The notes under the pieces were generated by a model, which was not told the DNA's origin, ran no database searches, and worked only from the letters and a program-made list of their open reading frames with translations. A DNA stretch of 64,000 nucleotides from an uncultured Actinomycetes bacterium (GTDB taxonomy: Bacteria; Actinomycetota; Thermoleophilia; Gaiellales; Gaiellaceae). A program made the translations under genes and the position numbers. This document shows positions 19,120-34,143 of this stretch, piece after piece (within the stretch, counting starts at the first letter, position 1; each line of letters begins with the position of its first letter). The stretch spans positions 47,266 through 111,265 of the forward strand of contig CAWICZ010000010.1 of the NCBI GenBank assembly GCA_963834825.1. Direction: 5' to 3'.

Positions 19120-19270
19120 TGTTTCTCCTTTCTTTGCTGGGTCTGTGCCGGGGGTGTCAAGTGGGCTTGGACCCGTTTACAAGGGGCCGGCGAGAGAGTG
19201 GGACGGCGATGAGTGCCAGGGTTGCCCAGATCACGCTGCCGAGACTGCCACTCGCGGCCCAAGGAGAAAA

Positions 19271-19299
19271 CACCCAGGAAGCCCGTTCACCCGGGTGAA
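19271..19299. promoter_or_regulatory. Palindrome copy 1: CACCC-N10-TTCACCCGGGTGAA
   Basis: The core at 19286-19299 is perfect. CACCC lies at 19271-19275. The element is 167 nt upstream of the minus-strand start at 19119. Confidence 0.6.
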
Positions 19300-19591
19300 A
19301 CGGATCCGCTGGAGCGCGTCAGCCGGCCTCGGCGACGGTCTCGGGCGGAGGTCCTCCCCCGGCCTCGAGCTCTCGCACGGCCAGGCGACGGAACGACGCG
19401 AAGCCCAGCGCGACGAGACCGCCGAGGAGGTCAGGGTGTCCCTTCAGGTCCAGCGCCAGCTTGCACAAGCTCTCCGCGCAGAGCTCCGCGAGCTGAGGCG
19501 CGCCCATGCGGCTCAGCTCCTGCAGCTGAAACGCGCACTCGCGCTGCTCCAGCGGCGCGTCGACAGGTTGCGCCCGAGGCCCTGATCTCGT

Positions 19592-21966
19592 TCACATGGC
19601 TCCGAGCTCCCGCGCGCGCGCAACGGCTTCCTGCCGCGACGAGACTCGAAGCTTCTGGTAGATCGACCTCGTGTGCGAGTGGATCGTGTTGAAGGAGAGG
19701 AAGAGCGCGTTCCCGATCTCTCGCTTGGACAAGCCCTCGGCGAGGTAGCGCAGGACCTCGGCCTCGCGCTCCGTGAGGTCGCTGTCACCGTCGATTCGAC
19801 GGTGTGCCGGGGTCAGCGTGCGTGCGCACTTCGACGAGGCGTCCGCTCAGGACGCCCGGATCCAAACAGCTCGCAACCAGGCGTCTTCGCCTCGGCGAGC
19901 AGCGCGCGCGCGGAAGCTGGCCCCTCCAGGGCGCGGCGCACCGGGGCAGCGACCAGCAGCGAATCGGCGACCTCGAGCGGCTGGCCGCGGACCCGCAGGT
20001 TCGCGAGACCCCGGTGCAGCAGCGGCTCCGCCTCCTCGTGCTCCCCACCGCGGGCGAGCGCGGCGCCCAGGGCGACATAGGCGACGCCTGCGCCGGGCTC
20101 GTCTGCGACACCGTGCAGCTCGAGCGTGCTCACTGCCCGGCGGGCCGCCGCCACGCTGGCGTCGACGTCGTCGGCCTCGAGAGAGATCCGTGCACGGAGG
20201 GCTTTGGCGATGCCGGCTACGAGCCATTGCTTCGAGCGCGCCGCCAGGAAGGCCGCCTGCTCGAGCGGAGCGCGCGCCACCTCGTGCTCCCCCGCGAAGA
20301 GCCGGGCCCAGCCGAGTGCCAGGAGTGAGAGGGACCGCCCGCTCGACAGGGTGTCGCCTTGCAGCTCGCAGACTCGGTTGGCGGCGCCCAGCATCCCGTC
20401 GGAGTCGCCCCACGGGAAGCAGGCGCGGGTGAGGGCGGTCGCGGCCTCGAACGAGAGGCCGCAGCGCATGGGGCCGTCGAATCGGGCGGCCTCGGCGGCC
20501 TCAAGCGCAGCCAGCGAGTCTTCCCGGGAATTGAGGACGCCCAGCGCCCACGCCTTGACGAGCGCAAGCCGCCCATCGCGCTCGACGTTCGTCAACGGAA
20601 GCGCCTCCAGCTGGCGGAGGCTCGCCTCGGCATACCCCTGCTGGAGAGACGGACGCCAGCCTTCGAACACCAGCGTGATGGCCGTCTCGAGCTCGTCGGC
20701 GGCTACAGCGTGACGTACGGCCTCGTACCCGTCGCCGGCCGCCGCGTACCACTCGGACGCTCGCCGGTGCACCTCGCGGGCGTGCTCGGCGTCACTCCGC
20801 AGCAGCTGGTTTCGGAGGACCTCCGCGAACAGCTGGTGATAGCGGTACGACTCGCGGCGGTCGTCGAGCGGGACCAGGAAGAGATTCGCGCGCTCGAGCT
20901 CCACGAGCAGCTCCGCGGAGCCCTGCCGCTGTACGGCCGCGTCGCAAAGCGGCCCGTTCATTGAGTCGAGGACCGACGTCTCGAGCAGGAACAGCCGACT
21001 GTCTTCGTCCAGCGTGTCGAGGACGACCTCGGTCAGGTAGTCGACGACGTGCCGGTTCGCGCCGCCGAAGCGTTCGACGAAGCCGGCCCGGTCGGGTGCC
21101 CGTGCGAGCGACAGCGCCGCGAGGCTCATGCCAACAGGCCAGCCCTCCGTGCGCTCGTGGAGCACTCTCAGGCTCTCGGCCTCCAGGCCTAGCTGCAACG
21201 TCTCGTTGAGGAAGGCGGCTGCCTCCTCCTGCGTAAAGCAGAGATCGGCGGCGCGGGCCTCGACCAGCTCGTCGAGCGCGCGCAGCCTCGCCAGTGGAAT
21301 CGGCGGGTCCGATCGTGTCGAGAGGGCGACCGTGACGTTGCGCGGCGCCCGCTCGAGGAAGAAGGTGAGCGAGTCGTGACAGATGCGATTGGTGATCTCC
21401 TGGTAGTCGTCGAGAACGAGGACGAGGTCCTCGCCGACGGCCTCCAGGTCGTTCAGAAGGGCCGGGACGACCGTCTGGACGACGTCGGGGCGGGGCTGGC
21501 ATAGCTCGGTCAGGGCGCCGTCATCGCAGTCCGTGGCGGCGTTTCGGATCGCGTGAACGATGTAGCTCCAGAGCGCGACCGGATCGTTGTCCCCCGAATC
21601 GAGAGAGACACAGGCGAAGGGGCGGTCGTCGAGGTCGCGCCACTGCGCGAGCACGGTGGTTTTCCCGAAGCCCGGCGGCGCAGCAAGCAGGATGAGCGTC
21701 GGAGCCGACTCCTGCAGCACGTCGGTGAGGCGTGGTCGCGCGAGGACGTCCCGCGGCGCGCGAACCCGTTGAAGCTTCGATTCGAAGAGGACGTCGCCGT
21801 CGGATGTGCCCCTCGTGAGCGTGTCAGCCGAGGCGAGCGTTGCGCTCACCGCCATGCGACCTTGGAGTTCCGGGACTCCGACGAAATAGCGTGTGGGGGG
21901 ACACGCGCGTCGGTCACCTTGCCTCCCGTCTCTTCGCGCTTCCCTCGAAGCATCCGTTACGGGCAT
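19592..21966 (-). pseudogene. MalT/LuxR-family large ATP-binding regulator, split by two frameshifts before the HTH
   Basis: The 717-aa ORF has P-loop LLAAPPGFGKTT and TPR-like repeats. The expected LVASCLDPGVLSGRLVEV segment sits in a second frame. The LuxR HTH LTEREAEVLRYLAEGLSKREIGNALFLSFNTIHSHTRSIYQKLRV sits in a third frame that ends at 19592. Confidence 0.75.
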
Positions 21967-22121
21967 CGCCAGCGTCGCTCACCAGGCACTCGAGGACAAT
22001 GAGGCGTGCACGGAGCTTTCCGTGGTGCCTGCACCCCGAGGCAGAGACCTGCCGGCCACTCGGCGCGACACCTGAGAGTCTCCTTGCCTACGCGCGCGCG
22101 GGCGATCACGCTTCGGCTTCA

Positions 22122-22541
22122 GTGCCGCTTCAAGAACCGACGCGGGTCGGCGTCCTCGTCGTGGACGACCAGACCCCCTTCAGACGCGTGGCCCTCGAAG
22201 TGGTCGCGGCAACCCCGGGTTTCGAGCCGTTGGGCGAGGCAGCCTCGGGCGAGGAGGCACTGGCGCTGGTGGCCCAGCTGAGTCCCGAGCTCATCCTCCT
22301 GGACGTCCGCATGCCGGTGATGGACGGGATCGAGACGGCCCGCCGGCTCAGCGCCGTGCATCCTGGAGGGGTCGTCGTCCTGATCTCCATCGACGACCCC
22401 GCCGAGTTGCCCCGGGAAGCCGAGTCTTGCGGGGCCAAGGCGCTGATCCGCAAGCAGGACTTCGGATCCCTTGCCCTGCGCCGGCTCTGGGACGCGCATG
22501 GGGGCCCGTACCGTCGGGCCTCTGCTGCCGCCCCGCCATAG
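22122..22541 (+). CDS. Stand-alone response-regulator receiver (REC) domain protein
   Basis: VLVVDDQTPFRR...LILLDVRMPVMDGIETARRL...KALIRK is a receiver domain with no output domain. An in-frame GTG lies at 22122. Confidence 0.7.
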   Translation: MPLQEPTRVGVLVVDDQTPFRRVALEVVAATPGFEPLGEAASGEEALALVAQLSPELILLDVRMPVMDGIETARRLSAVHPGGVVVLISIDDPAELPREAESCGAKALIRKQDFGSLALRRLWDAHGGPYRRASAAAPP

Positions 22542-22584
22542 GTATCTTCGGGCCGACAGCAGCGAGCCGAAACGAGGTGGCCTC

Positions 22585-24414
22585 GTGTCGAGCGTTGGGT
22601 ATGTGAATGCTGTCGCCCAGGAAGGCGCGCCCCAGCGACGGGGTGCGCTGATCGTCGCCGGAGCCGGGGGCTTGGTGCTCTGCGGTCTCGCCTTCGCCGT
22701 CGTTCTTACGAGTGACCAGCCCGGCAACCGGCCGCTGATCGCGCTCGGCCGCGTCCTCATCATCGCCGTGCCAATCGCTGTCGGGATCTGGCTCTGGAGC
22801 CAGCCCCAATACGAGCGCTTCGGTCGTGTGCTCGTCGCCGCCGGCTACATCTGGTTCCTCCCGACGCTCTCGGAGTCGAGCGACTCGGTGCTGTACAGCA
22901 TCGGCCGCATCGGCGCCTGGATGGCCGAGGCGGTCGTGATCTTCCTGATGCTCTCGTTCCCGTCCGGACGGCTGAGGACGATTCCCGAACGGGTGGTGGT
23001 CTGGGCGATAGTGATCGCGCCCACGGTGCTCTTCGCGCCGGTCTCGCTGATTGTCGAGCGCTTCCCCGAACCGACACCGTGGGCGTCGTGCGGGATGGAC
23101 TGCCCGGCCAACGCCTTCATGGTGATCGAGTCCGAACCGGCCTTCGTGGACGCGTGGCTTCAGCCGTTCCGAGAGTTGGTGGCGGTCACGATCTTCTTCG
23201 CGACCGCGGTACTGCTCGGACTGCGGATCCGACGCGCCTCCCACCTGATGAAGCGGACGCTGGCGCCGGTGCTGGTCGTCGCGATCATTCGCTGCCTCGC
23301 CGTCCCGATTTATGTGGCCCTGGAAAACCAGTCGTCGACGGTCGCACTCCACCTCGTCGGGTGGATCTTCATCCTCGGCCTTCCGGGCATTGCGCTCGCG
23401 TTCCTCGTCGGCGTGCTTCGCAGGCGCCTCTACGCCGGTAGCGCACTTCAGCGCCTTGCCCGTCGGCTGCGGGACGACCCGAACGTGGACCTGCCCGTCG
23501 TCATCGGCGAGGCCATCGCGGATCCGTCGCTCGAGGTCGCCTACTGGACGCCTGGGCTTCGGGGACCGTGGGTTGACGAGAACGGCCGCAGCGTCACGCT
23601 CCCCGGCAAGGACTCGGCGCGCTCGACGACGGAGGTCCGCGGCCGCGACGGTCCCGTGGCCCTTCTCATCCACGATCGCGCCCTGGACGACCAGGATGAA
23701 TTTCTGGGAGCGGTGGGGTCCATCGCTGTGGCGGCCCTCGAGAATCGCCGTCTCGCTGCGCAGGTGGACGCTTCGCTCGAGGAGCTACACGATTCGCGTG
23801 CTCGAATCCAGGCCGCGGCGGATGCCGAACGGCAGCGCATCGAGCGCGACCTCCACGACGGGGCGCAGCAACGTCTCGTCGCGCTCAGGGTGAGGCTGGA
23901 ACTGGCCGGCGAGCTCATGGGTGAGGACCCTGGACGCGGCGGCACGCTCGTGCGCGAGCTCGGATCGGAGGTGGAGGAGGCACTCGAGGAGGTCCGCGCG
24001 CTCGCGGGGGGCATCTACCCGTCGCTCCTCGCCGATCGGGGGATCGTTGAGGCGCTTCGGTCCGCCGCGGGGCGGGCTCCAGTCCCGATGACGATCGACG
24101 GCGACGGCGTCGGCCGCTATGCCCCGGAGCTCGAGAGCGCCGTCTACTTCTGCTGCCTCGAGGCCATCCAGAATGCCGCGAAGCATGCCGAGGGCGCCAG
24201 CGCCGTCTCGATCACGATCGCGGACGACGGTGCCGTCCGCTTCGCCGTCCGGGACGACGGCATCGGGTTCGACATCGAGAGCGCCGGTCGGGGCCGAGGC
24301 CTGACGAACATGCACGACCGTCTCGCCGCCGTAGGCGGCGAGCTGACGATCGAGTCGGCACCGGGAGAGGGCACCAGCGTCCTCGGCGTGATTCCTGGGT
24401 CTCGATTCGGCTAG
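22585..24414 (+). CDS. Sensor histidine kinase (HisKA_3 / NarX-type) with a polytopic N-terminal sensor
   Basis: Boxes present: H-box ERQRIERDLHDGAQQRL, N-box LEAIQNAAKHA, and G-boxes DDGIGF and GRGLTNMHDRL. There are about seven N-terminal TM helices. GAGGTGG precedes the GTG at 22585. Confidence 0.85.
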   Translation: MSSVGYVNAVAQEGAPQRRGALIVAGAGGLVLCGLAFAVVLTSDQPGNRPLIALGRVLIIAVPIAVGIWLWSQPQYERFGRVLVAAGYIWFLPTLSESSDSVLYSIGRIGAWMAEAVVIFLMLSFPSGRLRTIPERVVVWAIVIAPTVLFAPVSLIVERFPEPTPWASCGMDCPANAFMVIESEPAFVDAWLQPFRELVAVTIFFATAVLLGLRIRRASHLMKRTLAPVLVVAIIRCLAVPIYVALENQSSTVALHLVGWIFILGLPGIALAFLVGVLRRRLYAGSALQRLARRLRDDPNVDLPVVIGEAIADPSLEVAYWTPGLRGPWVDENGRSVTLPGKDSARSTTEVRGRDGPVALLIHDRALDDQDEFLGAVGSIAVAALENRRLAAQVDASLEELHDSRARIQAAADAERQRIERDLHDGAQQRLVALRVRLELAGELMGEDPGRGGTLVRELGSEVEEALEEVRALAGGIYPSLLADRGIVEALRSAAGRAPVPMTIDGDGVGRYAPELESAVYFCCLEAIQNAAKHAEGASAVSITIADDGAVRFAVRDDGIGFDIESAGRGRGLTNMHDRLAAVGGELTIESAPGEGTSVLGVIPGSRFG

Positions 24415-24522
24415 CGGTTCACCGAACGCTGGCCGAGCGTCCCGACGTGCATCCAATGCCTTCCGTGACGCACCCAGCTAGGCGTCGCGGGCGTTCTCCG
24501 CGACGGTCGCGCCGGAAGACAC

Positions 24523-24551
24523 CGCCCGCCGGACGCGTTCACCCGGGTGAA
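24523..24551. promoter_or_regulatory. Palindrome copy 2: CGCCC-N10-TTCACCCGGGTGAA (20-bp perfect palindrome GCGTTCACCCGGGTGAACGC)
   Basis: The core lies at 24538-24551, between the convergent ends of the kinase gene (24414) and the SHOCT gene (24568). Confidence 0.6.
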
Positions 24552-24567
24552 CGCGCCCGGCCAACGG

Positions 24568-24828
24568 CTAGCCGTCGAGGACCTGCTGCTTCTGCTGCGC
24601 AAACTCCTCTTCGGTGAGGGCTCCGGAGTCCCGGAGCTCCGCGAGCTTCTGGATGTCCGCGGTCTTCTCGTCCATGGTCCGCCCCGCAGGCTCCTCCGCA
24701 GGCGGTTCGGCGTACTGCTGCTGGTCGGCCTGCGCCTGTTCGTCCGCGACCTTGTTCGCGTGATGGCCGGCCAGCATGGCTCCGCCGACAACCGCTCGGC
24801 GTCTCATGCGACGTCTGGGTCCTGGCAT
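24568..24828 (-). CDS. SHOCT domain-containing small protein
   Basis: The C-terminal IQKLAELRDSGALTEEEFAQQKQQVL is a SHOCT motif. The N-terminus is basic: MPGPRRRMRRRAVVGGAML. Confidence 0.7.
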   Translation of the reverse strand: MPGPRRRMRRRAVVGGAMLAGHHANKVADEQAQADQQQYAEPPAEEPAGRTMDEKTADIQKLAELRDSGALTEEEFAQQKQQVLDG

Positions 24829-24852
24829 TGACCTACCTCCTTCTGTCGATGT

Positions 24853-27090
24853 TCATGACGTTGCGTTTGCGGTCTGGAGCTTGCTCCCAAGGCCCTCGAT
24901 GATCAGACCGGCTCCGCTCGTGACTGCTTCCTTGGCGTTGCCGTTCTGCAGCGAGCCGCCGACTGTGCCTGCCGTCTGGACCAGAGTGGCGACGGCGCCC
25001 TTGAGCGCCTCCCGCTTGCCCGGGTCCTGAAGCATCTGCCCGACGATGAGGAGGAACTGGTCGATCCCGGGCTTTACCTGCCCTGACGAGAGCAGAGGGC
25101 CTCCGAAGCCCTGCAGCCCTTCGACCGCCTCCTGGACGTTGCCCGCCACGGCCCGGCTCTTGAGCTTGTCCCCGAAGATGCCGGCGAACATCGCAGCCGA
25201 CATCGCGGCGGCCCCCTGCAGCGCCTCGGTCGGGCTGGCCTTGCCGCTCTGGACGTCCTTCGCCCCGAGCCGGGAGGACACAGCATCGATGAACAGTCCG
25301 GTCGCCTGCGCGGTCATCTGCTGGACGTCCGGCTTTTGGAGCTCGGCCCCGAGGGTGCCTGCAACCTCGACCATCGAACCGGCTGCGGCCTTGAAGTCGT
25401 GGCGCTCCTTCGCGTCCTTCAGGGCCGGGAGGGCTTCCTGTACGGCCGCCTGCGCCCCTTCGCGGACGGCGTCGGAGCGCCAGGCCGCTTCACGGACCAT
25501 CGACGTGATCGTGGTGAGCGCAGCCTTTGCCTGCTCTGCCTGCGCCGCGTTGGGCACCACCTGGCCGAGCAGTCCGTAGCCGAGCAGCTGGGCGCCGTCG
25601 GTCAGCGTGCGGATCGCATGCGTCACGTCGCCCGCCGCCTTGCCGAACTGCTGCGCGCCGATGAGCGCCGACAGCGGGATGTCCGTCGTCATCAGGTCGC
25701 CGAACGCTTCGCTGAAGTCCTCGATCGTGTGCCGCTGCACGTCGGCCGGGGTGAAAACCGGGCCCCCGATCTCGGTCGCCTGGATCTCGGCGCTCAGGAG
25801 GTCATTCTTCGAATACTGCGGGGTCGGGACGCGGAACGAGGTTGGGATCTCGCCGCCGAACATGGCACGGAATTCCGACGGGGCGAAGGACCGGGTCGAC
25901 CTCATGTTGGCCGAGTCGGAGACAGCCCAGTCGCGCGTCCAGACCGCGTCCTTCGTCACGTTGACGACGACGCCGTCGGGGGCGCCGAAGCAGAACAACC
26001 CCTGCCAGTGCTGCCGGATGCCCGCCAGGCACTCGCTCACGAGGTCGCGATCGAAGGCCATGTGGGTGACCATGCCGATGCGGGGATTGACCTGGTCGAT
26101 CATGTAGCCCGTTGCGTAGTGGTCGGTGTGCACGAGGTCGATCGTCGAGTTGTAGATCGCCGCCGGAATGCCGGTCTTCCGCTCCATGGTGGCCCCGAGA
26201 TCCGGCTGCAGCTCCGTCACGAAGACGTCGACGCCCTGCGCGTACTCCACCGTGTTCGTGTCGGGCCGGCCGTCGCCCGTCCACACGAAACTGAGGCCGT
26301 TCCAGTCGAGGCGGTAGGCGGACGCGCCGTCCATGTTGTGCGAGCGGCGCCAGTGCCGGACCGTGACACCGTTCTTGTCGTAGCAGATGCCGTTGTCGTC
26401 GGTGTAGTCGAATTCGTTGACCTCGACCTCGTAGCCGTCACCGATCGGGCTCGCGTTGAACGACTTCGTGTGCCAGTGGGTCATCCTCTTCATGCCGTCG
26501 ATCATGTGGCCGATGCCTTCGTCCTTCGTGCGGCCCGAAGGCCCGTGCACGCGGAGCGGAGTCCACCGCCCCGCCCAGGGGGCGAAGCAGAAGAGGTAGG
26601 GCAGCTCGCCGTAGTGGTCCACGTGGAGGTGGGTGAAGAAGATGTCGTTGATGGTCTGCAGCGGCACCTGCGCCGCCAGGATGTTCCGCAGGCTCCCTGG
26701 ACCGAAGTCGAAGAAGAAGCGGTCGCCGTTCCCGAGCTCGACGCAGATGCAGGTCGCCGCCTGGTCGCGCTTCGGGGGGAACGGGCAAGAGCCCATGAAC
26801 GTGATCCGCATTTCGTCCGGCCCGATCTCCTCCGACGTCGGAAAGAACGTGCTGTTGCTGTTCAGGTACGGCGTCGGCTTGAAGTAGGGCGGTATCGAGA
26901 TGCCCTGGCCGCCCCCACCGCCATACGGGCTCGCCGGCGGCGGGGACGCAGCCGACGTCTTCTTCGCCGCCGCGCGCGGAGCTGCGGCCTTGCTCGCCGC
27001 CGGCTTCTTCGCAGCCGCCTTGCGCGCGGCCGGTTTCTTCGCGGCCGCCTTACCTGTCGCCTTGCTGCTTGTCGTTCGCTTTCGTGCCAA
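24853..27090 (-). CDS. MBL-fold metallo-hydrolase with a Lys/Ala-rich N-terminal tail and a roughly 330-aa Ala/Gly/Gln-rich C-terminal extension
   Basis: The HxHxDH motif FFTHLHVDHYG is present. The N-terminus KATGKAAAKKPAARKAAAKKPAASKAAAPRAAAKK is H1/HupB-tail-like. The long low-complexity helical C-terminus was not recognised. Confidence 0.8.
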   Translation of the reverse strand: MARKRTTSSKATGKAAAKKPAARKAAAKKPAASKAAAPRAAAKKTSAASPPPASPYGGGGGQGISIPPYFKPTPYLNSNSTFFPTSEEIGPDEMRITFMGSCPFPPKRDQAATCICVELGNGDRFFFDFGPGSLRNILAAQVPLQTINDIFFTHLHVDHYGELPYLFCFAPWAGRWTPLRVHGPSGRTKDEGIGHMIDGMKRMTHWHTKSFNASPIGDGYEVEVNEFDYTDDNGICYDKNGVTVRHWRRSHNMDGASAYRLDWNGLSFVWTGDGRPDTNTVEYAQGVDVFVTELQPDLGATMERKTGIPAAIYNSTIDLVHTDHYATGYMIDQVNPRIGMVTHMAFDRDLVSECLAGIRQHWQGLFCFGAPDGVVVNVTKDAVWTRDWAVSDSANMRSTRSFAPSEFRAMFGGEIPTSFRVPTPQYSKNDLLSAEIQATEIGGPVFTPADVQRHTIEDFSEAFGDLMTTDIPLSALIGAQQFGKAAGDVTHAIRTLTDGAQLLGYGLLGQVVPNAAQAEQAKAALTTITSMVREAAWRSDAVREGAQAAVQEALPALKDAKERHDFKAAAGSMVEVAGTLGAELQKPDVQQMTAQATGLFIDAVSSRLGAKDVQSGKASPTEALQGAAAMSAAMFAGIFGDKLKSRAVAGNVQEAVEGLQGFGGPLLSSGQVKPGIDQFLLIVGQMLQDPGKREALKGAVATLVQTAGTVGGSLQNGNAKEAVTSGAGLIIEGLGSKLQTANATS

Positions 27091-27126
27091 CGTCCGTCGA
27101 CCTCCTTCGTTTCTCCTTGGTGGTTC

Positions 27127-28107
27127 TCAGGCGGGGGCTAGACAGCTCTCGAATTTCGCGTGCAGATCGTGCTCGTCGATGCCGCCCTGGGCCCCGATGG
27201 CCACGATGCGCGTGCGTCGGGGGCGATCGCCCCACTCGTCGGTCAGCTCGACGTCGACCCGTTTCCCGACCACCTGCAACACCGCGCGCCGGTCGGGCGA
27301 TTCGCTCGCGTGCACGACGCCCTTGGCGCGGTAAACGCTCGCGGGCAGCTTGGACGCCGCCTCGCGGAGCCTCTCGAGCGAGAGCGGCAACGCCGTCTCG
27401 TAGCTCCAGGTACTGAACTCGGTCGCGTGGTCGTGATGGTGCTCGTGGCCGTGTGCGTCGAGCTCGACGCGGTCCGGGTCGAAGCGATTCACCGACAGGA
27501 GCACCTCGTTCGGGACGTCGCAGTAGCTCGCCTGGACCAGCCGGTAGCGGTGGAAGTGGTCGTCCAGCCAGGCGTGGATTCGTTCGAGCTCGGCGCTCCC
27601 GACGAGGTCGACCTTGTTCAGGATCAGCATGTCGGCGCAGGCGATCTGCCAGAGCTTGAGCCGCTCGGCCTCGGGCGTCTCGAACACCTGCTCCGCGTCG
27701 ACGACGCAGGTGATGCTGTCGAGCCGGATCCGGTCGCGCAGCTTCTCCATCGAGAACGTGACCATCAGGCCCGCGGGATCCGCGACACCGCTCGCCTCGA
27801 GTAGGACGCACTCGGGCCGCTCGGGACGGTCGATCGTCGCAAGCACCGTCTCGATCAGGTCGTCCCGGATCGTGCAGCAGACACAGCCGTTCGCGAGGCT
27901 GACCACATCGCTCTCCACGCCGATGACGAGCTCCGCGTCGATGTTGACCGAGCCGAAGTCGTTGACGAGCACCGCGACCCGCAGGCCGTGGTTCTCACTC
28001 AGGATCCGGTTGAGCAGCGTCGTCTTGCCCGCGCCGAGAAATCCGGTGAGGACGGTGAGCGGGACCGGCTCGCCGCCGGCTTGGCGCTCGTGATCGACAA
28101 GTTCCAT
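27127..28107 (-). CDS. COG0523 (CobW/HypB/UreG-type) GTPase, putative metallochaperone
   Basis: P-loop GFLGAGKTTLLNRIL, metal motif GCVCCT, switch NKVDL and His-rich DAHGHEHHHDH are all present. Confidence 0.9.
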   Translation of the reverse strand: MELVDHERQAGGEPVPLTVLTGFLGAGKTTLLNRILSENHGLRVAVLVNDFGSVNIDAELVIGVESDVVSLANGCVCCTIRDDLIETVLATIDRPERPECVLLEASGVADPAGLMVTFSMEKLRDRIRLDSITCVVDAEQVFETPEAERLKLWQIACADMLILNKVDLVGSAELERIHAWLDDHFHRYRLVQASYCDVPNEVLLSVNRFDPDRVELDAHGHEHHHDHATEFSTWSYETALPLSLERLREAASKLPASVYRAKGVVHASESPDRRAVLQVVGKRVDVELTDEWGDRPRRTRIVAIGAQGGIDEHDLHAKFESCLAPA

Positions 28108-28142
28108 CCCGCGGGATTCTGGGGTCGGCAGGACGAGGAGTC

Positions 28143-28173
28143 TTCACCCGGCGGCGCAGGTCACCCGGGTGAA
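28143..28173. promoter_or_regulatory. Palindrome copy 3: TTCACCC-N10-gTCACCCGGGTGAA
   Basis: The core lies at 28160-28173 (first T replaced by G). It sits 36 nt upstream of the COG0523 start at 28107. Confidence 0.55.
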
Positions 28174-28226
28174 GCAGCCACGGGAGGCGCGACAGGCGGC
28201 CGGTTGCTGCGCGCTCCGGATCGCGA

Positions 28227-28255
28227 TTCACCCGGGTGAACGAGGCCATCGGGTG
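28227..28255. promoter_or_regulatory. Palindrome copy 4 (inverted orientation): TTCACCCGGGTGAA-N10-GGGTG
   Basis: The core at 28227-28240 is perfect and GGGTG lies at 28251-28255. It sits 120 nt upstream of the COG0523 start. Confidence 0.6.
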
Positions 28256-28362
28256 GCGATGGCCGCGCGCGCTCGCACAGAATCGTGAACGCGGGCGCCT
28301 TCGTTCAGCGAGCGCAGGCGCCCGTCCCCACAACAACACAGGACTAATGACGCTCGCGGTGG

Positions 28363-28572
28363 TCACGGCCAGGAGATCGGGTTGCTACTCGAGAGATGGA
28401 TCCCGAAGGCGGTCGCGAAGCCGCGCGTCGCGATCACTCCGGTCAGCTTGCCCCCAATGCTTGTACGCGTCGGGCAGCATCGTGTCCGCGAGCATCGTGA
28501 GGATCGCGCCGACGGCGAAGGTCTGGACGAAGGCCACCGTGCCGTCGGACGCGTCCTCGAGGAGGCCGTAGC
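28363..28572 (-). pseudogene. C-terminal remnant of a ZIP-family metal transporter (truncated and frameshifted)
   Basis: The minus strand reads LLEDASDGTVAFVQTFAVGAILTMLADTMLPDAYKH, then after a frame change GGKLTGVIATRGFATAFGIHL. This resembles the last two helices of actinobacterial ZIP proteins (recollection). There is no N-terminal part. Confidence 0.45.
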
Positions 28573-29171
28573 CGGGCGCGGGGTCTGGGGCGGCTCGGCT
28601 AAAAAGACTGGGCCGGGACCTGTTCGAGCCGGTGGTTTTGCGGCGGCAAAGGGAACCCGCGCCGCGCCCAGCCGCAGATTTGCGGGTTCGCTCCCATTTA
28701 TGCCGCCGATTCGGTTAGACGCTGTCTCTATCGCGGTGAGCGCGTGGTAGCCGAGCGGTCGCGAGTACCCCTTCGGTCCTCGGTGTCGAGACCTGTTCCC
28801 TATCTCGGTGCCTGAAACCGATTTGCCCCGTGTGCTCTGTATTGGTTTGGTCACGCGGCTAGAGCCGCTTCCGCCGCGTCAGCGAACGCTAAGTACGCGA
28901 CCGCGCGGCCCATACCGCCACGGCCCGGCCGGTCTGACGTCGTGCCAGGAGCTGACGGGGACGAACTCGTCGTCGACGACGAATCCGCCTTCGACCTTGA
29001 CGACCTCAGCCACGGCGAATCGTGAGCGGCCCGCCGGCCGACGCGGCGGCGCGCTCGAGCCGGGGCTCGACCGTCGCGGCCACGTCCTGAGTCTACGACC
29101 GGGACAACAGTGGGTTTCTTTCGGTGAGAGGTGCCACCGCGCCAGCCTTAGCGTCCACCCATTTCGCGTGC

Positions 29172-29714
29172 TCAGTGAACGAGCCGCTCGAGGAGGAGCA
29201 GGACGACACCAAGCATTCCCTGTACCGCGCCTAGGATGCCGGCACTAAGCCAGCTTCCGCCCGAGCGGCGGCCGGCGATAAATCCCCAGCCGGTGATCTG
29301 CAGAATCGCGGCAACGAGTGCCAGCACGGCGCCGGTCTCGCGCGACCACACGCCGGCCCAAGCGAGGGCGAGCAGGACGATCGGCAGGACGGCAGCTTGG
29401 ACCAGCGGCCATTCCCGCCGCGCGATCACGAGGACCTCGCTAGACCGGAACTCTCCCCCGGCGGCAATCCTCTCGCCGATGACCTCCGACCATGCGTGGG
29501 CGAGCCAGAAAATCAGCATCGACCCCAACGCCGATGCCGTCATCTCGCGCGCGCTTGCGCCCGCGTCGAAGGCGGCGCCGACGACGGCCGCCACCAGGAA
29601 CGATCCGTAGACAGCCGCTCCGAAACGGATCTCTCTCGGGTCCGTGATTGCCAATGGCGCGCCTCCTCTTCCGGAGCCGATCATCGCAGCCGTTCCCAGC
29701 CTCCGCGTCCGCAA
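29172..29714 (-). CDS. Hypothetical integral membrane protein (180 aa)
   Basis: There are four or five hydrophobic helices (AVYGSFLVAAVVGAAF, LGSMLIFWLAHAW, AVLPIVLLALAWAGVW, VLALVAAILQITGWGFIA, ILGAVQGMLGVVLLLL). Confidence 0.6.
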   Translation of the reverse strand: MRTRRLGTAAMIGSGRGGAPLAITDPREIRFGAAVYGSFLVAAVVGAAFDAGASAREMTASALGSMLIFWLAHAWSEVIGERIAAGGEFRSSEVLVIARREWPLVQAAVLPIVLLALAWAGVWSRETGAVLALVAAILQITGWGFIAGRRSGGSWLSAGILGAVQGMLGVVLLLLERLVH

Positions 29715-30447
29715 GCCTTAGGGTCCAATCCATGTAGGACGAAGCCGCCGCGCTTCGGCGTCGTCTCCGTCCACTGGGAGCGGGGCGACCAGTCCGGCGT
29801 CCCGGCCAGCGTCGAGGACTGCAACTCGCTCGAAGCAGTGGCCGACGCGATGGGCGAGCTGTTCGAGCCCGACCGCTGGGTCAGCGTCGTCGGCATCACC
29901 GGCGCCGGTCTGCGACGTCGAGGAGGCCGAGATCCTGCGGCTGCTCGGCGCACGCTGCTACGACGTCGAGGAGACCGCGCGCTCGGGGAACGCGCTCATG
30001 GTGAAGGCGACGCGCGTCTAGAGCGGCGCGCGCAGGGGTGGGGGACCTCCCCTCCCCCGGCCGAGTCCCCCGGCGGGTCACCCCAGCTCAGCGGTGGATT
30101 ACAAGGGGGCCGGGGCGATACGAATGCATTTCCCGCTGAACGCCGGGACCTCGGCCTAATGGCCCGCACCGCAGGCGAGATCGGGAGTCGGAACATGCGT
30201 CGCCGGCCAGCAATTCGGGGGGCCTGAGCGCCCATCCGGGACGATCCCCGGGCAGTGCGGATGATCGTCCATCGGCGTGAGAAGGCCCGACAACCGCCGA
30301 TCGACGGTTTGAACCCATTTGGGCGTCCTCACCCGTCTCCGAGCTCGTCACATCTTAGGGAGTCGGGCGCCTCGTCTTCCCTAGCCCGAGTGTCTAGGCG
30401 TCGGGCCGCCTGGGAAATCCGAGGCCGCCCGGCTCGTTCATCTTTCC

Positions 30448-30882
30448 TTAGCGGCTAGTTGGAGCTGCGGCGAGCTCGTCGGCCTCCATTCTCGCGAGTG
30501 AGGCATCAAGGACTGCGTACTCGGCCTCCTCGATCGCCGCGTACGCGTAGTCGATGGCAAAGGTGGCATCGTCTTCGGCGTTGTCGGCCCTCGTCTGTGC
30601 TCGACCCACGTCGTGCTCTGCCCGCCTTTCCTCGATGTCGGAGCGGATCTTCTCGATGTGCTCGTCCCACGAGCGCTGCACGTCGTGCCACCAGACGGAC
30701 AGCTTGCCCTTCTTTGCGTCGGCCGTTGCGCGGAGCTTGTCGGCCTGTGCCTGAGCGGACGTGCGCGCGTTCTCGACATCGCGCTCGAGGTCGGCTCTGG
30801 CCTTTCCTTGTGCGGCTGCGGCGCGGTCCTCTGCCTCCTTGGCCCGAGCAGCCAGCTTCGTCAACTGATCCGATACGGCCAT
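30448..30882 (-). CDS. Hypothetical coiled-coil protein (144 aa)
   Basis: AGGAGG lies 5 nt before the ATG at 30882. The sequence is charged and heptad-like throughout. Confidence 0.65.
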   Translation of the reverse strand: MAVSDQLTKLAARAKEAEDRAAAAQGKARADLERDVENARTSAQAQADKLRATADAKKGKLSVWWHDVQRSWDEHIEKIRSDIEERRAEHDVGRAQTRADNAEDDATFAIDYAYAAIEEAEYAVLDASLARMEADELAAAPTSR

Positions 30883-31229
30883 CTCAACCTCCTAGCTTGC
30901 GGCTCTTTGCCAGGTCATCGAATGGATAGGAGCGGTCCCGTTTGGGCTGCTGAGGTGCGTCCTGAAATGGGCACCTCCCTTCTCCGATAATGGAAGCACC
31001 CCTGCGGCGCCCGTCCGGACGTGGCTCGTAGACATCATCAGGACGTCACGCGCATGTGTCAAGACGTTGCGCGTCAGGTGGGGACTGGGGTCGTGGTCGA
31101 GCACGCCCGCGTCGATCGGCGTCGCCGCCGCGCGCGCCGATGCCTGCGCCGGCGCGGGAGGGACCTCAGCGAGCCGGGGCGGACGCTCGGTTGCCGCCAA
31201 TGCACCGAGCGCGGCGGCGGGACGAGTAA

Positions 31230-31448
31230 GTGATCCCTCGCATGAGGGATAGCCGGATTTGGCAGGACAACGGATGCTGCAGCCGTGCGAACACCCATAC
31301 CGATTTCGCGCTCGAGATCATCGTCCTTCTCGCGATGTACTTACTCATCAGTTGGTTCGCAGGAGCCGACGCCATCCTCTTTGCTGCACCCGTTTTCATC
31401 GTCGGCTGGTTCTTCGGCTGGCTCGAAGCCAAGCAACCGAGTCGTTAG
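31230..31448 (+). CDS. Possible small 2-TM membrane protein
   Basis: ALEIIVLLAMYLLISWFAGADAILFAAPVFIVGWFFGWL is hydrophobic. Codon usage is atypical (tta, agt, ttt) and the start is unclear. Confidence 0.3.
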   Translation: MIPRMRDSRIWQDNGCCSRANTHTDFALEIIVLLAMYLLISWFAGADAILFAAPVFIVGWFFGWLEAKQPSR

Positions 31449-31454
31449 TCCGGA

Positions 31455-31610
31455 CTACGAAACGAAGCGCCGGCGAGAGAGCCAGCCAAGGAGCGCACCG
31501 AGCACGACCCCGGCCTCAGGTGCAAAGGGAACATCGGTGGTCAGACTGACGACAATGCCTAGCGCCAAGCCCAGCACGGCTCCGAGCGCGATGGCGGCTC
31601 CGACGCTCAC
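31455..31610 (-). CDS. Possible small 2-TM membrane protein (51 aa)
   Basis: A GTG at 31610 opens VSVGAAIALGAVLGLALGIVVSLTTDVPFAPEAGVVLGALLGWLSRRRFVS. Confidence 0.35.
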   Translation of the reverse strand: MSVGAAIALGAVLGLALGIVVSLTTDVPFAPEAGVVLGALLGWLSRRRFVS

Positions 31611-31693
31611 ATGCGCGAGTGTATGACGGCTACTCGCTAAGCAGCGTGGATCAATAGGGCGTAACCAGAGTTCTCGCGAGAGGGCACGAGCGC

Positions 31694-32047
31694 CTAGGCC
31701 TCGCGGTCGTCGCTCAGGAAGAACGTGGCGAACGCGCCTGTCACGCCGGCCACGAAGAGCACGCCACAGATCTCGAACAGGATGTTCAGGACGCGCCCGC
31801 CGGTGGTCAACGGGTTCTTCAGCGAAGAGGAGACGGTCAGCAGCTGTACCGTCGTGAAGTAGAGCGCGTCGAAGACCGTCTTGATCTCGGTTCCCGGAGC
31901 ATGCCGTTCCAAGAAATAGATCGCGACCGTGCCGACGAGTGCGACCAAGGAGGTTGAAGCGACGAGGAATGTGAAGCGGGCGACGAGCAGGCGATGTCGC
32001 TGCTGCCACGAGAAAATGCGCCGCCACTCCTGGGGAAGCGAGAACAC
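31694..32047 (-). CDS. Two-TM ion-channel-family protein with a non-canonical pore
   Basis: The architecture is TM1, pore helix, TM2: FDALYFTTVQLLTVSSSLKNPLTTGGRVLNILFEICGVLFVAGV. The usual TVGYGD filter is replaced. Confidence 0.6.
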   Translation of the reverse strand: MFSLPQEWRRIFSWQQRHRLLVARFTFLVASTSLVALVGTVAIYFLERHAPGTEIKTVFDALYFTTVQLLTVSSSLKNPLTTGGRVLNILFEICGVLFVAGVTGAFATFFLSDDREA

Positions 32048-32212
32048 ATGCTGAGTCTCACGCCGGGTGCGGACGACCGTTCAGGGGCAAAGCAGAGCGG
32101 ACGAGATCCCTGACACGAGCGCGATGCCGATCCAGAAGCCGATGATCGGCGCATGCTTCCAGCCGGCCGCAGCAAAGCCGGTCGACGATCCGATCGCCTC
32201 GGGCAGGTTGCG

Positions 32213-32241
32213 TCCCCAGCAAGCAGATTCACCCGGGTGAA
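32213..32241. promoter_or_regulatory. Palindrome copy 5: TCCCC-N10-TTCACCCGGGTGAA
   Basis: The core at 32228-32241 is perfect. It sits 166 nt upstream of the channel-gene start at 32047 and 41 nt downstream of the response-regulator stop. Confidence 0.6.
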
Positions 32242-32281
32242 GCGGCGCCTCCACCTGGTTGTCGAGGTCGACCGCCAGCAG

Positions 32282-32986
32282 TCAGCCAGGTGAGTCGATA
32301 GGGCCCGGAGCAGCGAGCCTGTCGCCTTCGTCGGCGAGGAAGAGCAGGGCGGCCTTGACACGCTTGCTGACGTCCTCGGCGTCGGTGAGCCCGAGCTTCA
32401 GGAAAATCGAGTTGATGTGCTTCTCGACTGCCCGCTTCGTGAGGACCAGCGACTCACTGATAGCACGGTTGCTCTTGCCTTGGGCGATCGCGGCGAGAAC
32501 CTCGACCTCGCGTGGAGTGAGCTCGGTCAGCGGTGACGCGGCGGACCGGGACCGGGACGCCACGAGGACATCCACGACGCTGGGATCGATTACCGAACCC
32601 CCCTCGGCGACTGTCTCGATCGCCGTTACGAGCTGCGCTCGATCGTGTACGCGCTCCTTGAGCATGTAGCCGCGACTTTGCGATCCGAGCTCGAGAAGTG
32701 CCAGCGCATAGCTCGGATCCGTGTACTGACTGAGCACGATGACACCGACTTCGGGATGGGTCCGCCGGAGGAGAGTTGCGGCCTGGATGCCTTCATCGGT
32801 CTGCGTGGGTGGCATGCGGATATCCGTCACGACCACGTCCGGACTCCCAGTCTCAACCGCCTTGAGGAGGGATGGCAGGTCCGCGCACGAGGCCACGACC
32901 TCGATCTCGGTCTCAGTCGCGAGGACTTGTTCCAGACCTTCTCGGACGAACAGGTTGTCGTCCGCAAGCGCCACCCGGGTCGGCAC
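32282..32986 (-). CDS. NarL/FixJ-family response regulator (REC + LuxR HTH)
   Basis: The receiver reads ALADDNLFVREGL...VVVTDIRMPP. The HTH reads LTPREVEVLAAIAQGKSNRAISESLVLTKRAVEKHINSIFLKLG. Confidence 0.9.
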   Translation of the reverse strand: MPTRVALADDNLFVREGLEQVLATETEIEVVASCADLPSLLKAVETGSPDVVVTDIRMPPTQTDEGIQAATLLRRTHPEVGVIVLSQYTDPSYALALLELGSQSRGYMLKERVHDRAQLVTAIETVAEGGSVIDPSVVDVLVASRSRSAASPLTELTPREVEVLAAIAQGKSNRAISESLVLTKRAVEKHINSIFLKLGLTDAEDVSKRVKAALLFLADEGDRLAAPGPIDSPG

Positions 32987-33157
32987 ACGACAATGATATG
33001 CCGGGAACTGCGCGCCGACCGTTGCCTTTCTCGACGACGCCTCACGGAGACAAATGAGCGGGGGTCAGCAGGGTCGAGTCCCGCGACCTGGCATGCAATG
33101 GAGATGGTTGTTCCTTTCTCGGATGGGGCGACTCGGTGGCGTTAGCAGGCGGTTTGG

Positions 33158-33430
33158 TCATGGCTGAATCTCGTCGTCCGTCGGGTTCACGCTCACGATC
33201 TCGACGCCGAGCGTTGTCAGCCAGCTCATCACTCCCTGGAGCTGCGACTGGTCGACGAGGTCTCCGGTCAGCACGGACTCGTCTCCAGCATCCTCAACGT
33301 TCATTCCTTCGAGCGGTCCCACGAGCGGCTGGGCGAGCTCGCCCCGGATGACGATCTGGTACCGGACCCGGCTCTGTCCCGTGCGGCCGGCGAATCGCTT
33401 CGACCTCTGTTCGGACTCCCGGTCGGCCAC
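33158..33430 (-). CDS. Hypothetical 90-aa protein (recurrent actinobacterial family, VRYQIVIRGEL...DQSQLQGVMSWLTTLGVEIVSV)
   Basis: The pattern YxIxxRGxL ... DQxxLxGVxxxLxxLGxxxxSV is one I recall from many actinobacterial hypotheticals. Confidence 0.6.
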   Translation of the reverse strand: MADRESEQRSKRFAGRTGQSRVRYQIVIRGELAQPLVGPLEGMNVEDAGDESVLTGDLVDQSQLQGVMSWLTTLGVEIVSVNPTDDEIQP

Positions 33431-33445
33431 CTCAGGTCACCCGCG

Positions 33446-33628
33446 TCAGCAGTGCATCCGTTGAGACGTGGCCGTTCCGGGTGTAGCTATTCGTGTCTGC
33501 GCTTGCTCCTGAGACTCTGCTTTCTCCAGCCCCGCCGCCGCGTTGAACCAATCGAAGAGGACGAACGAAACCAGAGCCATCATCGCCACCGGCCACGAGT
33601 ACACGACGAATACTCTGAACCACTCCAT
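33446..33628 (-). CDS. Small membrane protein (60 aa)
   Basis: GAGAGGAG lies 8 nt before the ATG at 33628. MEWFRVFVVYSWPVAMMALVSFVLFDWF forms one TM helix. Confidence 0.55.
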   Translation of the reverse strand: MEWFRVFVVYSWPVAMMALVSFVLFDWFNAAAGLEKAESQEQAQTRIATPGTATSQRMHC

Positions 33629-33700
33629 CCGGCCACTCCTCTCTCGGTCGGCACGGCTTGTCGGTTGTCATGAGGTTCCTACAACCTCGTAGACCGCGCA

Positions 33701-33730
33701 TCACCCGCTCCTCGGATTCACCCAGGTGAA
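33701..33730. promoter_or_regulatory. Palindrome copy 6: TCACCC-N10-TTCACCCAGGTGAA (one mismatch)
   Basis: The core lies at 33717-33730. The flanks CTCCTCG / CGAGGAG extend the hairpin. It sits 73 nt upstream of the start at 33628. Confidence 0.55.
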
Positions 33731-33777
33731 CGGCTCGAGGAGGCCACGGGGCAGGTGGCCTCCTCACCTACTCCTGA

Positions 33778-33969
33778 TCAACGTCCAGGGCCTGGACGAC
33801 CGGGGCCGCCTGGACCGGGGCCCGGACGACCGGGGCCGCCTGGACCGGGGCCCGGACCGCCGGGGCCGCCTGGGCCGGGGCCCGGACCGCCGGGGCCGCC
33901 TGGGCCGGGGCCTGGACGACCGGGGCCGCCTGGGCCGGGGCGGGGTCTCGGGCGAGCCTCTCTCACCAT
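33778..33969 (-). CDS. Pro/Gly decapeptide-repeat microprotein (63 aa)
   Basis: GGAGGTG lies 5 nt before the ATG at 33969. The product is MVREARPRPRPGPGGPGRPGPGPGGPGGPGPGPGGPGGPGPGPGGPGRPGPGPGGPGRPGPGR. All six frames are open here, so the strand call rests on the RBS. Confidence 0.5.
   Translation of the reverse strand: MVREARPRPRPGPGGPGRPGPGPGGPGGPGPGPGGPGGPGPGPGGPGRPGPGPGGPGRPGPGR
33791..33940. repeat. Five head-to-tail 30-nt repeats (ccYggacSRccggggccgcctggRccgggg)
   Basis: Units start at 33791, 33821, 33851, 33881 and 33911 and differ at 1-4 positions. They are contiguous with no spacers. Confidence 0.9.
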
Positions 33970-34097
33970 GCGAACACCTCCGTGGTCTCGACTGTTGTTC
34001 TCGGCCTGCGCATCGAGGCGAGCCGGTGGGGAACGGCTCGGTGACACCGGCTGACGGTGTCGACTCGGAGGATCGCGCGACCGCCACACGCGCGCAT

Positions 34098-34143
34098 CGC
34101 CCGCCGAGCGTGTTCACCCGGGTGAACTCGGGTCGTGGGCGAT
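34098..34143. promoter_or_regulatory. Palindrome copy 7 with both arms: CGCCC-N10-TTCACCCGGGTGAA-N10-GGGCG
   Basis: The core at 34113-34126 is perfect. ATCGCCC (34096-34102) and GGGCGAT (34137-34143) are inverted. It lies in the divergent region between the PG-repeat gene start (33969) and the antiporter start (34180). Confidence 0.65.

Follow-up and report, generated by a model that had tools for sequence, protein, structure and literature searches.

A palindrome of 14 base pairs (bp), TTCACCCGGGTGAA, recurs within a 64-kb stretch of DNA from an uncultured Actinomycetes bacterium of the family Gaiellaceae (contig CAWICZ010000010.1, positions 47,266 to 111,265; this whole stretch is called the window, and coordinates are given in its numbering), and it very probably belongs to a cis-regulatory array of activator-dependent promoters that serve a local regulon. 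The local regulon was already proposed in the preliminary description of this DNA, and the reading has held up: the sites face genes, a -10-like hexamer follows at a constant distance in 45 of 51 groups of sites from relatives, and in those relatives the element precedes orthologous genes and stays within a single region of some 16 kb. The protein that binds it is probably a MalT-family regulator encoded among the sites.

A search of the window allowing up to two mismatches yields seven matches, five of them exact, starting at 19286, 24538, 28160 (one mismatch), 28227, 32228, 33717 (one mismatch) and 34113 (copies 1 to 7). These are exactly the starts previously listed, and the earlier placements of the copies relative to genes are all as stated there. 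Dinucleotide shuffles of the window, whose G+C content is about 68%, give a mean of 0.14 matches and a maximum of 2, against the 7 observed. No full copy had been noticed elsewhere in the 64 kb, and neither allowing three to four mismatches nor searching with the proximal box (described below) alone brought in any credible site outside 19.2-34.2 kb of the window. The occurrence of ACCCGGGT said to flank the start of a response-regulator gene (32973) falls outside this set: it is a lone extra 8-mer, of which about 0.9 is expected by chance, with five mismatches to the palindrome. A full-text search of the literature for the motif strings gave only unrelated primers containing CCCGGG.

When the C-rich pentamer seen earlier at a fixed 10 nucleotides (nt) from the core is set downstream, all eight oriented instances, copy 7 being counted both ways, read TTCACCCGGGTGAA-N10-GGG(T/C/G)G; the fixed spacing thus applies to 8/8, and on both sides of copy 7. 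The pentamer proves to be the leading five bases of a more extended conserved box, (C)GGG(T/C)GATG, the start of a third half-site, and the full oriented element is TTCACCC-GGGTGAA-N10-GGG(T/C)GATG-N20-(G/n)AnnnT, in which the two palindromic heptamers abut. The hexamer GGG(T/C)GA occurs three times per element, once inverted and twice direct (three per one-sided site, four per bidirectional site); the spacing of the inverted pair is 7-0-7, and the direct repeat lies 17 bp away. Oriented by the pentamer, six window copies face the leading gene of a transcription unit, with copy 7 aiming both ways.

Relatives were collected in one scan of one-genome-per-species contigs with the exact pattern TTCACCCGGGTGAA-N10-GGG, which gave at least 116 loci of at most 8 kb each; the counts on site-bearing loci given below (51 groups, 65 loci) cover the matches listed. 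A position profile was built from 51 dereplicated high-GC site groups, with the palindrome at positions 0-13; GGG at 24-26 and G at 28 are demanded by the selection of sites. Around these the profile has C in 78% of groups at position 23, T or C at 27, A in 73% at 29, T in 59% at 30 and G in 88% at 31. In about half of the relatives' sites a mirrored box, CATCGCCC, lies on the opposite side, making the element bidirectional.

Further downstream two isolated peaks stand out, A at position 53 (32/51, p = 2e-12) and T at position 57 (30/51, p = 4e-12). An A at -11 and a T at -7 are the signature of a -10 element, and the peaks are best read as one: the hexamer nAnnnT is found at offset 52 +/- 1 in 45 of the 51 groups, whereas control three-position windows contain 2.6 on average and never more than 7. 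The consensus of the aligned hexamers is GAnnnT, its first base being G in 53% and T in just 11%. Counted from this hexamer, the palindrome spans -64 to -51 (centre -57.5) and the proximal box -40 to -33, its hexamer GGG(T/C)GA at -40 to -35 occupying the position of a normal -35 element; 22 nt separate GGGYGA from the -10, and at none of the sites is there a -35 hexamer or a sigma-70-type -35/-10 pair. With the proximal hexamer in the -35 position, RNA polymerase would probably be unable to use these promoters unaided, and we infer activation rather than repression.

The -10-like hexamer is present at 7/8 oriented window sites, the exception being copy 2; the set comprises CAGTCT, CAGAAT (twice), GATCGT, GAACCT, GATCCT and TAGCGT. 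Leaderless mRNAs are common in Actinobacteria, and the start sites predicted for copy 3 (2 nt from the COG0523 start codon) and for the right side of copy 7 (3 nt from that of the antiporter gene) fit such transcripts, providing an independent check of consistency on starts that are predicted from sequence alone. The sites and their promoters are as follows.

19286..19299, minus strand: palindrome of copy 1, aiming left at the operon of a small membrane protein, DUF7144, DUF6325 and a sulfatase.
19242..19275, minus strand: promoter of copy 1; box GGGTGTTT at 19275..19268, -10-like CAGTCT at 19247..19242, predicted start at about 19235.
24538..24551, minus strand: palindrome of copy 2, 17 nt past the stop codon of the SHOCT gene, between convergent gene ends.
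28160..28173, minus strand: palindrome of copy 3, one mismatch, aiming at the COG0523/MBL/SHOCT operon.
28116..28149, minus strand: promoter of copy 3; box GGGTGAAG at 28149..28142, -10 CAGAAT at 28121..28116, predicted start at about 28109.
28227..28240, plus strand: palindrome of copy 4, aiming right.
28251..28283, plus strand: promoter of copy 4; box GGGTGGCG at 28251..28258, -10 CAGAAT at 28278..28283, predicted start at about 28290.
32228..32241, minus strand: palindrome of copy 5, flanked by the stop codon of the response-regulator gene and by the ion-channel gene, and aiming at the latter.
32185..32217, minus strand: promoter of copy 5; box GGGGACGC at 32217..32210, -10 GATCGT at 32190..32185, predicted start at about 32178.
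33717..33730, minus strand: palindrome of copy 6, one mismatch, aiming at a small membrane protein, a 90-residue protein (p90) and possibly the response regulator.
33673..33706, minus strand: promoter of copy 6; box GGGTGATG at 33706..33699, -10 GAACCT at 33678..33673, predicted start at about 33666.
34113..34126: palindrome of copy 7, bidirectional, each side having its own proximal box and -10.
34069..34102, minus strand: left promoter of copy 7; box GGGCGATG at 34102..34095, -10 GATCCT at 34074..34069, predicted start at about 34062, leading to the PG-repeat open reading frame (ORF).
34137..34170, plus strand: right promoter of copy 7; box GGGCGATG at 34137..34144, -10 TAGCGT at 34165..34170, predicted start at about 34177.

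Several of these promoters can be followed into relatives. The box and -10 of copy 1 (GGGTGTTT ... CAGTGT/CAGTCT) recur at the orthologous sites of L063 and L089, the right promoter of copy 7, whose predicted start lies 3 nt before the antiporter start codon (34180), is the same in L020 and L112, and the copy 6 type of promoter with its leader, ahead of the unit of small membrane protein and p90, is near-identical over about 60 nt in more than ten metagenome-assembled genomes (MAGs) of relatives. For copy 3, whose predicted start is 2 nt from the COG0523 ATG (28107), a leaderless transcript is predicted. A reading of GGGTGATG as a Shine-Dalgarno sequence with start codon was ruled out, the real ribosome-binding sites and start codons lying further downstream. 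Copies 2 and 4 are less regular. Copy 2 is a perfect palindrome with a weak, degenerate box (GGGCGGTG, 24527..24520), no nAnnnT at the expected offset and a direction that is antisense into the 3' end of the kinase gene; it is probably a vestigial site or a binding site that is no promoter. Copy 4 has a good box and -10, and no convincing plus-strand ORF was found downstream of it, the tblastx comparison of 28.2-31.7 kb with the loci being swamped by high-GC low-complexity matches. The roughly 2 kb that follow it (28241-30450) have low coding potential, with a minus-strand ORF resembling a membrane protein (29172-29714) and short fragments only; this stretch may represent a target gene that has decayed or been replaced, or else yield a non-coding transcript.

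Real-looking matches, among those listed, come mostly from Gaiellaceae, Thermoleophilia, Solirubrobacterales and soil MAGs named "uncultured Actinomycetes", and about ten are from environmental Mycobacterium or Mycolicibacter; matches in Gammaproteobacteria and Bacteroidales are without the downstream box, and those in Gammaproteobacteria, with their near-identical flanks, are most likely conserved coding sequence. Where a contig as long as 1.5 Mb has two of the listed loci, the pair forms neighbouring 8-kb blocks, about 16 kb together (L035/L047, L056/L107, L114/L007, L019/L066, L049/L087 and L111/L098); every exact match listed on MAG contigs of 0.7-1.5 Mb falls in such blocks. The complete or near-complete chromosomes OY970285.1 (2.4 Mb), JAOSJZ010000001.1 (3.3 Mb) and NZ_CP169059.1 (5.8 Mb) have one listed block each, and contigs of 0.7-2.4 Mb have one listed block or two neighbouring ones. 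With the strict pattern used (exact palindrome plus GGG), one region of about 16 kb per contig means that the element is local, not dispersed.

Conservation upstream of orthologous genes had been suggested as a check, and sites are indeed found before p90, DUF6325, sulfatase, antiporter and other genes. Merged maps of the adjacent blocks have the same units in shuffled order with a site ahead of each, the genes behind the sites in relatives being the small membrane protein with p90, DUF7144, DUF6325, SHOCT, sulfatase, the Na+/H+ antiporter and COG0523/MBL. Searches by tblastn with the window's proteins gave matches, among the loci listed, in 23 for p90 (Mycobacterium and Solirubrobacterales included), 20 for the MalT-like regulator, 19 for DUF6325, 11 for the sulfatase, 10 for the antiporter, 9 each for DUF7144 and the 57-residue membrane protein, and 6 for close orthologs of the response regulator. 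Two further islands of 20 kb each, L117 and L118, sampled separately through p90 homologs, have 4-6 sites of the same architecture, preceding DUF7144, SHOCT, p90, AI-2E-transporter and other membrane genes.

Genes of the window island were called from third-position G+C together with Pfam and NCBIfam searches.

15271..19119, minus strand: target operon 1, small membrane protein, DUF7144, DUF6325 and sulfatase.
15271-17640, minus strand: sulfatase.
17846-18331, minus strand: DUF6325.
18400-18807, minus strand: DUF7144.
18946-19119, minus strand: 57-residue membrane protein.
19589-21966, minus strand: MalT-like STAND/LuxR (LAL) regulator, by Pfam and NCBIfam; best candidate binder.
22122-22541, plus strand: receiver-only response regulator (Pfam Response_reg, 64.7 bits).
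About 22471-24414, plus strand: HisKA_3 histidine kinase, by Pfam.
24568..28107, minus strand: target operon 2, COG0523 GTPase, MBL-fold GntH-like protein and SHOCT protein.
24568-24828, minus strand: SHOCT protein.
24853-27090, minus strand: MBL-fold GntH-like protein.
27127-28107, minus strand: COG0523 GTPase.
31694-32047, minus strand: target 3, a small Ion_trans_2 channel protein; an Ion_trans_2 gene is also in the L117 island.
32282-32986, minus strand: NarL-type response regulator with a GerE helix-turn-helix; rival candidate binder.
33158..33628, minus strand: target 4, small membrane protein (MEWF...) and p90; the most widely conserved target.
33158-33430, minus strand: the 90-residue protein p90, of no family; its true start is probably MSKRF at about 33406.
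33446-33628, minus strand: 60-residue membrane protein (MEWF...).
33778-33969, minus strand: target 5, a 63-residue PG-repeat ORF with a Shine-Dalgarno sequence.
34180-35520, plus strand: target 6, Na+/H+ exchanger.

Both LuxR-type regulators of the island had been put forward as binders, and of the two the MalT-like protein has come out as much the better supported: its helix-turn-helix is encoded in 19 of the 65 site-bearing 8-kb loci listed, and in two more with variant boxes, against 6 of 65, all of the Gaiellaceae type, for an ortholog of the NarL-type response regulator. The combination of MalT-like gene and site is met in Gaiellales, Mycobacterium, Egibacteraceae, Ilumatobacteraceae, Actinophytocola, Thermoleophilaceae and Solirubrobacterales. 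In Mycobacterium L002 the regulator gene (3795-6125, minus strand) is accompanied by a site at 6603 directed at a p90 homolog and another at 1793 directed at a short-chain dehydrogenase, with no two-component genes within the 8-kb block. In L117 and L118 the regulator genes have WHD_MalT, TPR_MalT and GerE domains with sites alongside, and L117 has no response regulator of the NarL type within its 20 kb, though sites, p90 and MalT-type gene are present. In L002, which is from Mycobacterium sp. HNNTM2301, a gene for an ECF-type sigma factor (7161-7781) directly follows the p90 homolog.

The association was also examined reciprocally, by taking a profile of 12 MalT-like regulators to 80 metagenome loci of the wider MalT family. 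The palindrome is present in 8 of the 80, usually within about 200 nt of the regulator gene, either upstream in the divergent region or just past the stop codon. All eight of these loci share the recognition helix [N/D]T[IVLM][K/H][S/T]H..x[IVL]Y.KL, and of 50 loci whose helix is of another type not one has a site; the broad search returned mostly other subfamilies without the palindrome, which serve as a control for specificity.

The window regulator itself (21966-19589) is, judged by its sequence, a genuine MalT relative. Pfam recognises AAA_16/AAA_22, and the NCBIfam MalT model gives a partial match of 301 bits over residues 60-492, the equivalog cut-off being 537; the C-terminal GerE helix-turn-helix (19592-19831) is intact at 67.5 bits, and the N-terminal module of an ortholog matches the E. 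coli MalT structure 8bob with E = 6.7e-54. In the 140-nt divergent region upstream of the gene lie a conserved leader and a 12-bp palindrome of a different kind, GGTGCAGGCACC (22024-22035), which also precedes the MalT-like orthologs in L111 (about 1000-1012), L007 (about 1320) and L012 (about 2310); it may be a second operator controlling the regulator gene, and would fit a cascade.

Several observations weigh against an activator-dependent array bound by this regulator. The signature of the recognition helix was set after the positives were known, so that its p value of 6e-8 is only indicative. The MalT-like gene in the window has two frameshifts near 19830-19885, and if they are real the regulator would be inactive here despite perfect sites; outside them the protein shows 72-83% identity to orthologs, uninterrupted by stop codons, and many orthologous genes in related MAGs are split likewise, making assembly (long-read) indels likely and a recent pseudogene possible. 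The regulator is found in only the 19 of 65 listed site-bearing loci counted above, these 8-kb blocks being short and not centred on the sites, and the Gaiellaceae islands also hold a LuxR-type response regulator and a kinase that could act on the same sites. The half-site is one base off the MalT core, and a 7-0-7 inverted pair is without counterpart in E. coli or Actinoplanes. The weak points among the sites are copy 4, a good promoter with no visible target, and copy 2, with its degenerate box and lack of a -10. Finally, the usual -10 in Actinobacteria is TAnnnT, and the GAnnnT found here, with its rare initial T, is atypical for the housekeeping sigma factor; it could reflect either activator dependence or a non-housekeeping sigma factor.

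The most obvious competitor for the sites is the NarL-type response regulator (32282-32986), which, phosphorylated by the HisKA_3 kinase (22471-24414), would govern a two-component regulon like those of NarL or DosR, a dimer occupying the palindrome and a further protomer the proximal half-site. NarL-family dimers bind inverted heptamers (the 7-2-7 sites of NarL), and the regulator has the GerE helix-turn-helix to match this known type of target; G/C-rich palindrome, proximal site near -40 and co-encoded NarL-type regulator and HisKA_3 kinase all recall the NarL and DosR operators. Its gene follows p90 directly in the copy 6 operon (in the window and in L018), a position from which it would regulate its own expression, its orthologs, at 65-95% identity, lie within 8 kb of sites in six of the loci listed, and kinase, response-regulator and MalT-like genes are contiguous in L112, L104, L097 and L118. 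We nevertheless regard it as an unlikely binder. Orthologs accompanied by sites are confined to the Gaiellaceae-type MAGs, a minority of the lineages (6 of 65 listed loci against 19 for MalT-like genes); L002 and the 20-kb L117 have sites, p90 and MalT-like gene without such a response regulator; the response regulators of L097 and L104 are only about 32% identical; and the best family matches of the protein are generic and far below cut-offs. The names MctR, a rhizobial regulator of pyruvate transport, and MadR, which NCBIfam offers for it, were set aside on the same scores. The operators differ too, in their 7-0-7 rather than 7-2-7 spacing and in a sequence, TTCACCC-GGGTGAA, unlike either the NarL consensus TACYYMT or the DosR box. 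The gene, lying downstream of that for p90, is probably a member of the regulon, and its product may act as a co-regulator as well.

The two regulators might instead share the promoters, a LuxR-type dimer such as the response regulator sitting on the 14-bp palindrome and the MalT-like protein on GGG(T/C)GATG. The proximal box does have conserved bases (ATG after GGGYGA, and a preceding C) that the palindrome halves lack, both types of regulator are present in Gaiellaceae islands, sometimes in a single string of kinase, response-regulator and MalT-like genes, and the separate conserved palindrome GGTGCAGGCACC before the MalT-like gene hints at a cascade. Such two-input promoters seem distinctly improbable, however, since palindrome and box share the hexamer GGG(T/C)GA and the palindrome is equally invariant in lineages where no ortholog of the response regulator is nearby. 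It is very doubtful that the conserved blocks are simply the recognition elements of an alternative sigma factor. In favour are the -10 of GAnnnT rather than TAnnnT, a loose similarity of GGGTGAT to GGGTAT, the -10 of SigB/SigF-type promoters, and the ECF sigma gene after p90 in L002; but four conserved blocks over 64 bp exceed the contact range of one sigma factor, the 22 nt between GGGYGA and the -10 exceed what a -35/-10 pair allows, the palindrome is perfect and often works in both directions, and no sigma gene is consistently linked to sites in the island maps or in L117 and L118. A SigB/SigF-type or ECF promoter was dismissed on this spacing and number of blocks.

A perfect palindromic core, the position of copy 2 between convergent gene ends and flanks some of which can pair had also suggested a repetitive extragenic palindromic (REP) or miniature mobile repeat, a terminator or a transcribed structured RNA; REP elements are likewise short G/C-rich palindromes repeated in intergenic DNA. 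This we consider close to negligible. REP elements are scattered, whereas the matches listed occupy one region of about 16 kb even on long contigs, are oriented toward the orthologous genes they precede, keep a fixed distance to the -10 and are retained at orthologous promoters across orders. With the -10 downstream of it, the palindrome would be outside the transcript of its own promoter, and none of the hairpins in the interval that resemble T-run terminators is at a site. The complementary flanks once thought to extend the hairpin do not stand out across the family: when left and right 10-nt spacers were compared with permutations keeping position-specific composition, complementary positions, of 10, averaged 4.0 in two-sided sites against 3.93 expected and 2.99 in one-sided sites against 3.20. 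The suggested Rfam check gave no match in the island, neither at the gathering score nor at E <= 1, so neither a structured RNA nor, given the gene-oriented clustering, the REP/RAYT alternative is borne out; no RAYT (IS200/IS605-type) transposase is among the annotated island genes, in which no search aimed at RAYT was made.

The closest precedent for a MalT-controlled array is an island of Actinoplanes sp. SE50/110, where the MalT homolog ACSP50_3915 activates 40 of the 51 genes of its local island through the motif TCATCC-N5-GGATGA; at 17 mapped start sites the distance to the 3' end of the motif is 34.4 +/- 1.0 nt, and the island has no maltose genes and is shuffled among relatives with the motif kept (PMC7567727). 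The likenesses are many: a large local island that encodes its own MalT-like LuxR/STAND regulator and has a palindromic hexamer motif before many of its transcription units, a proximal hexamer overlapping the -35 region (here predicted to end at -35), and a content mostly of poorly annotated membrane and enzyme genes, shuffled in order while the motif is kept. Unlike the single inverted pair over -35 in Actinoplanes, the element here has an abutting TCACCC-GGGTGA pair at -57.5, upstream by two helical turns, plus a direct hexamer at -40 to -35; the core hexamer is one base different, the gene content differs, and the present island is known from its sequence. The MalT box of E. coli and Klebsiella, GGGGA(T/G)GAGG with core GGA(T/G)GA, is also placed at the -35 region (PMC7567727), and MalT is a multimer, induced by ATP and ligand, that binds arrays of 3-4 boxes cooperatively (PMC4381067, PMC10427625). 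The island regulator shares with E. coli MalT a homologous nucleotide-binding oligomerisation module and a C-terminal GerE helix-turn-helix, and the promoters share several short asymmetric boxes of which the proximal one, by its predicted position, replaces the -35. The half-site GGG(T/C)GA agrees with the core GGATGA in 5 of 6 bases. It departs from E. coli MalT in a whole-protein score below the equivalog cut-off of 537 bits, in targets that are not maltose genes and in an arrangement, 7-0-7 inverted pair with a direct repeat 17 bp away, undescribed for E. coli. The element would thus belong to a known kind of MalT/LAL-controlled island, with an operator grammar of its own, rather than to a new kind of system.

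From the architecture, orientation, -10 offset, conservation, clustering and regulator linkage set out above we infer the identity of the binder, a MalT-family regulator being the likeliest, with somewhat better than even confidence, to act on this array of activator-dependent promoters. The palindrome would be the distal part of a composite, oriented array of activator-binding boxes forming an activator-dependent promoter. On receipt of a signal the STAND/LuxR regulator would multimerise, as E. coli MalT does, fill the three boxes cooperatively and recruit RNA polymerase, so activating membrane and stress genes in six or seven transcription units, the operon with the NarL-type response regulator among them. 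A more speculative extension, which we think rather unlikely, is a portable "regulon cassette" made up of the invariant tripartite operator, a MalT-family STAND regulator of a distinct type and the uncharacterised, ferredoxin-like p90 (82-90 residues), which would be either the regulator's obligatory partner or its first target, with a two-component input in Gaiellaceae. It could have moved between Thermoleophilia and Mycobacteriales, gaining other membrane and stress genes in each host, and in Gaiellaceae the response-regulator dimer would take the palindrome and the STAND protein the proximal box. If true, this would be an undescribed coupling of a STAND switch to a phosphorelay.

The p90 gene is the one most widely conserved behind the element, usually adjacent to the MalT-like gene. 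No Pfam or NCBIfam model matches the family (about 82 residues), whose 99 homologs (P0001-P0099) are all annotated "hypothetical". An AlphaFold model (pLDDT 83.8) predicts a beta-beta-beta-alpha-beta topology, a small ferredoxin/ACT-like alpha/beta fold, with no significant neighbour in the PDB (best E = 0.067, TM < 0.5); p90 was considered as a DNA-binding protein, and nothing in the predicted fold points to DNA binding.

Other genes of the island deserve mention. The receiver-only ORF (22122-22541) lies just upstream of the annotated kinase ORF and overlaps its start, so the island encodes two receiver proteins. The MBL-fold protein (24853-27090) scores 510 bits against the NCBIfam GntH equivalog, an MBL hydrolase of guanitoxin biosynthesis (cut-off 333); its C-terminus is extended by a long stretch rich in alanine and glycine, and it adjoins the metallochaperone-type COG0523 GTPase. 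The PG-repeat ORF consists almost wholly of PGPGG repeats and is followed by a hairpin with a perfect 11-bp stem (33737-33765); in the closest relative, L018, a DedA-family membrane protein fills its slot behind the same promoter. The islands of the distant relatives L117 and L118 also hold polyphosphate kinase and exopolyphosphatase (in L118 at 17916-20294), along with PLD-like, BrkB, AI-2E-transporter, holin-like and FGE-sulfatase genes; ppk2 genes are likewise recorded in MalT islands related to that of Actinoplanes (PMC7567727).

Thermoleophilia, and Gaiellales within them, are abundant soil bacteria with almost no experimental genetics, and the island offers predictions for them: a sharply defined operator, seven predicted start sites in the window and a candidate regulator. 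The predicted regulon comprises about 15 genes, mostly of uncharacterised function (DUF7144, DUF6325, SHOCT, p90 and small membrane proteins), and the same elements occur in environmental Mycobacterium species amenable to culture and mutation. Taken with the Actinoplanes case, the island suggests that control of compact, shuffled islands unrelated to maltose is a common role of MalT-type STAND regulators in Actinomycetota, and the element described here would represent a second operator grammar for the MalT-type protein family.

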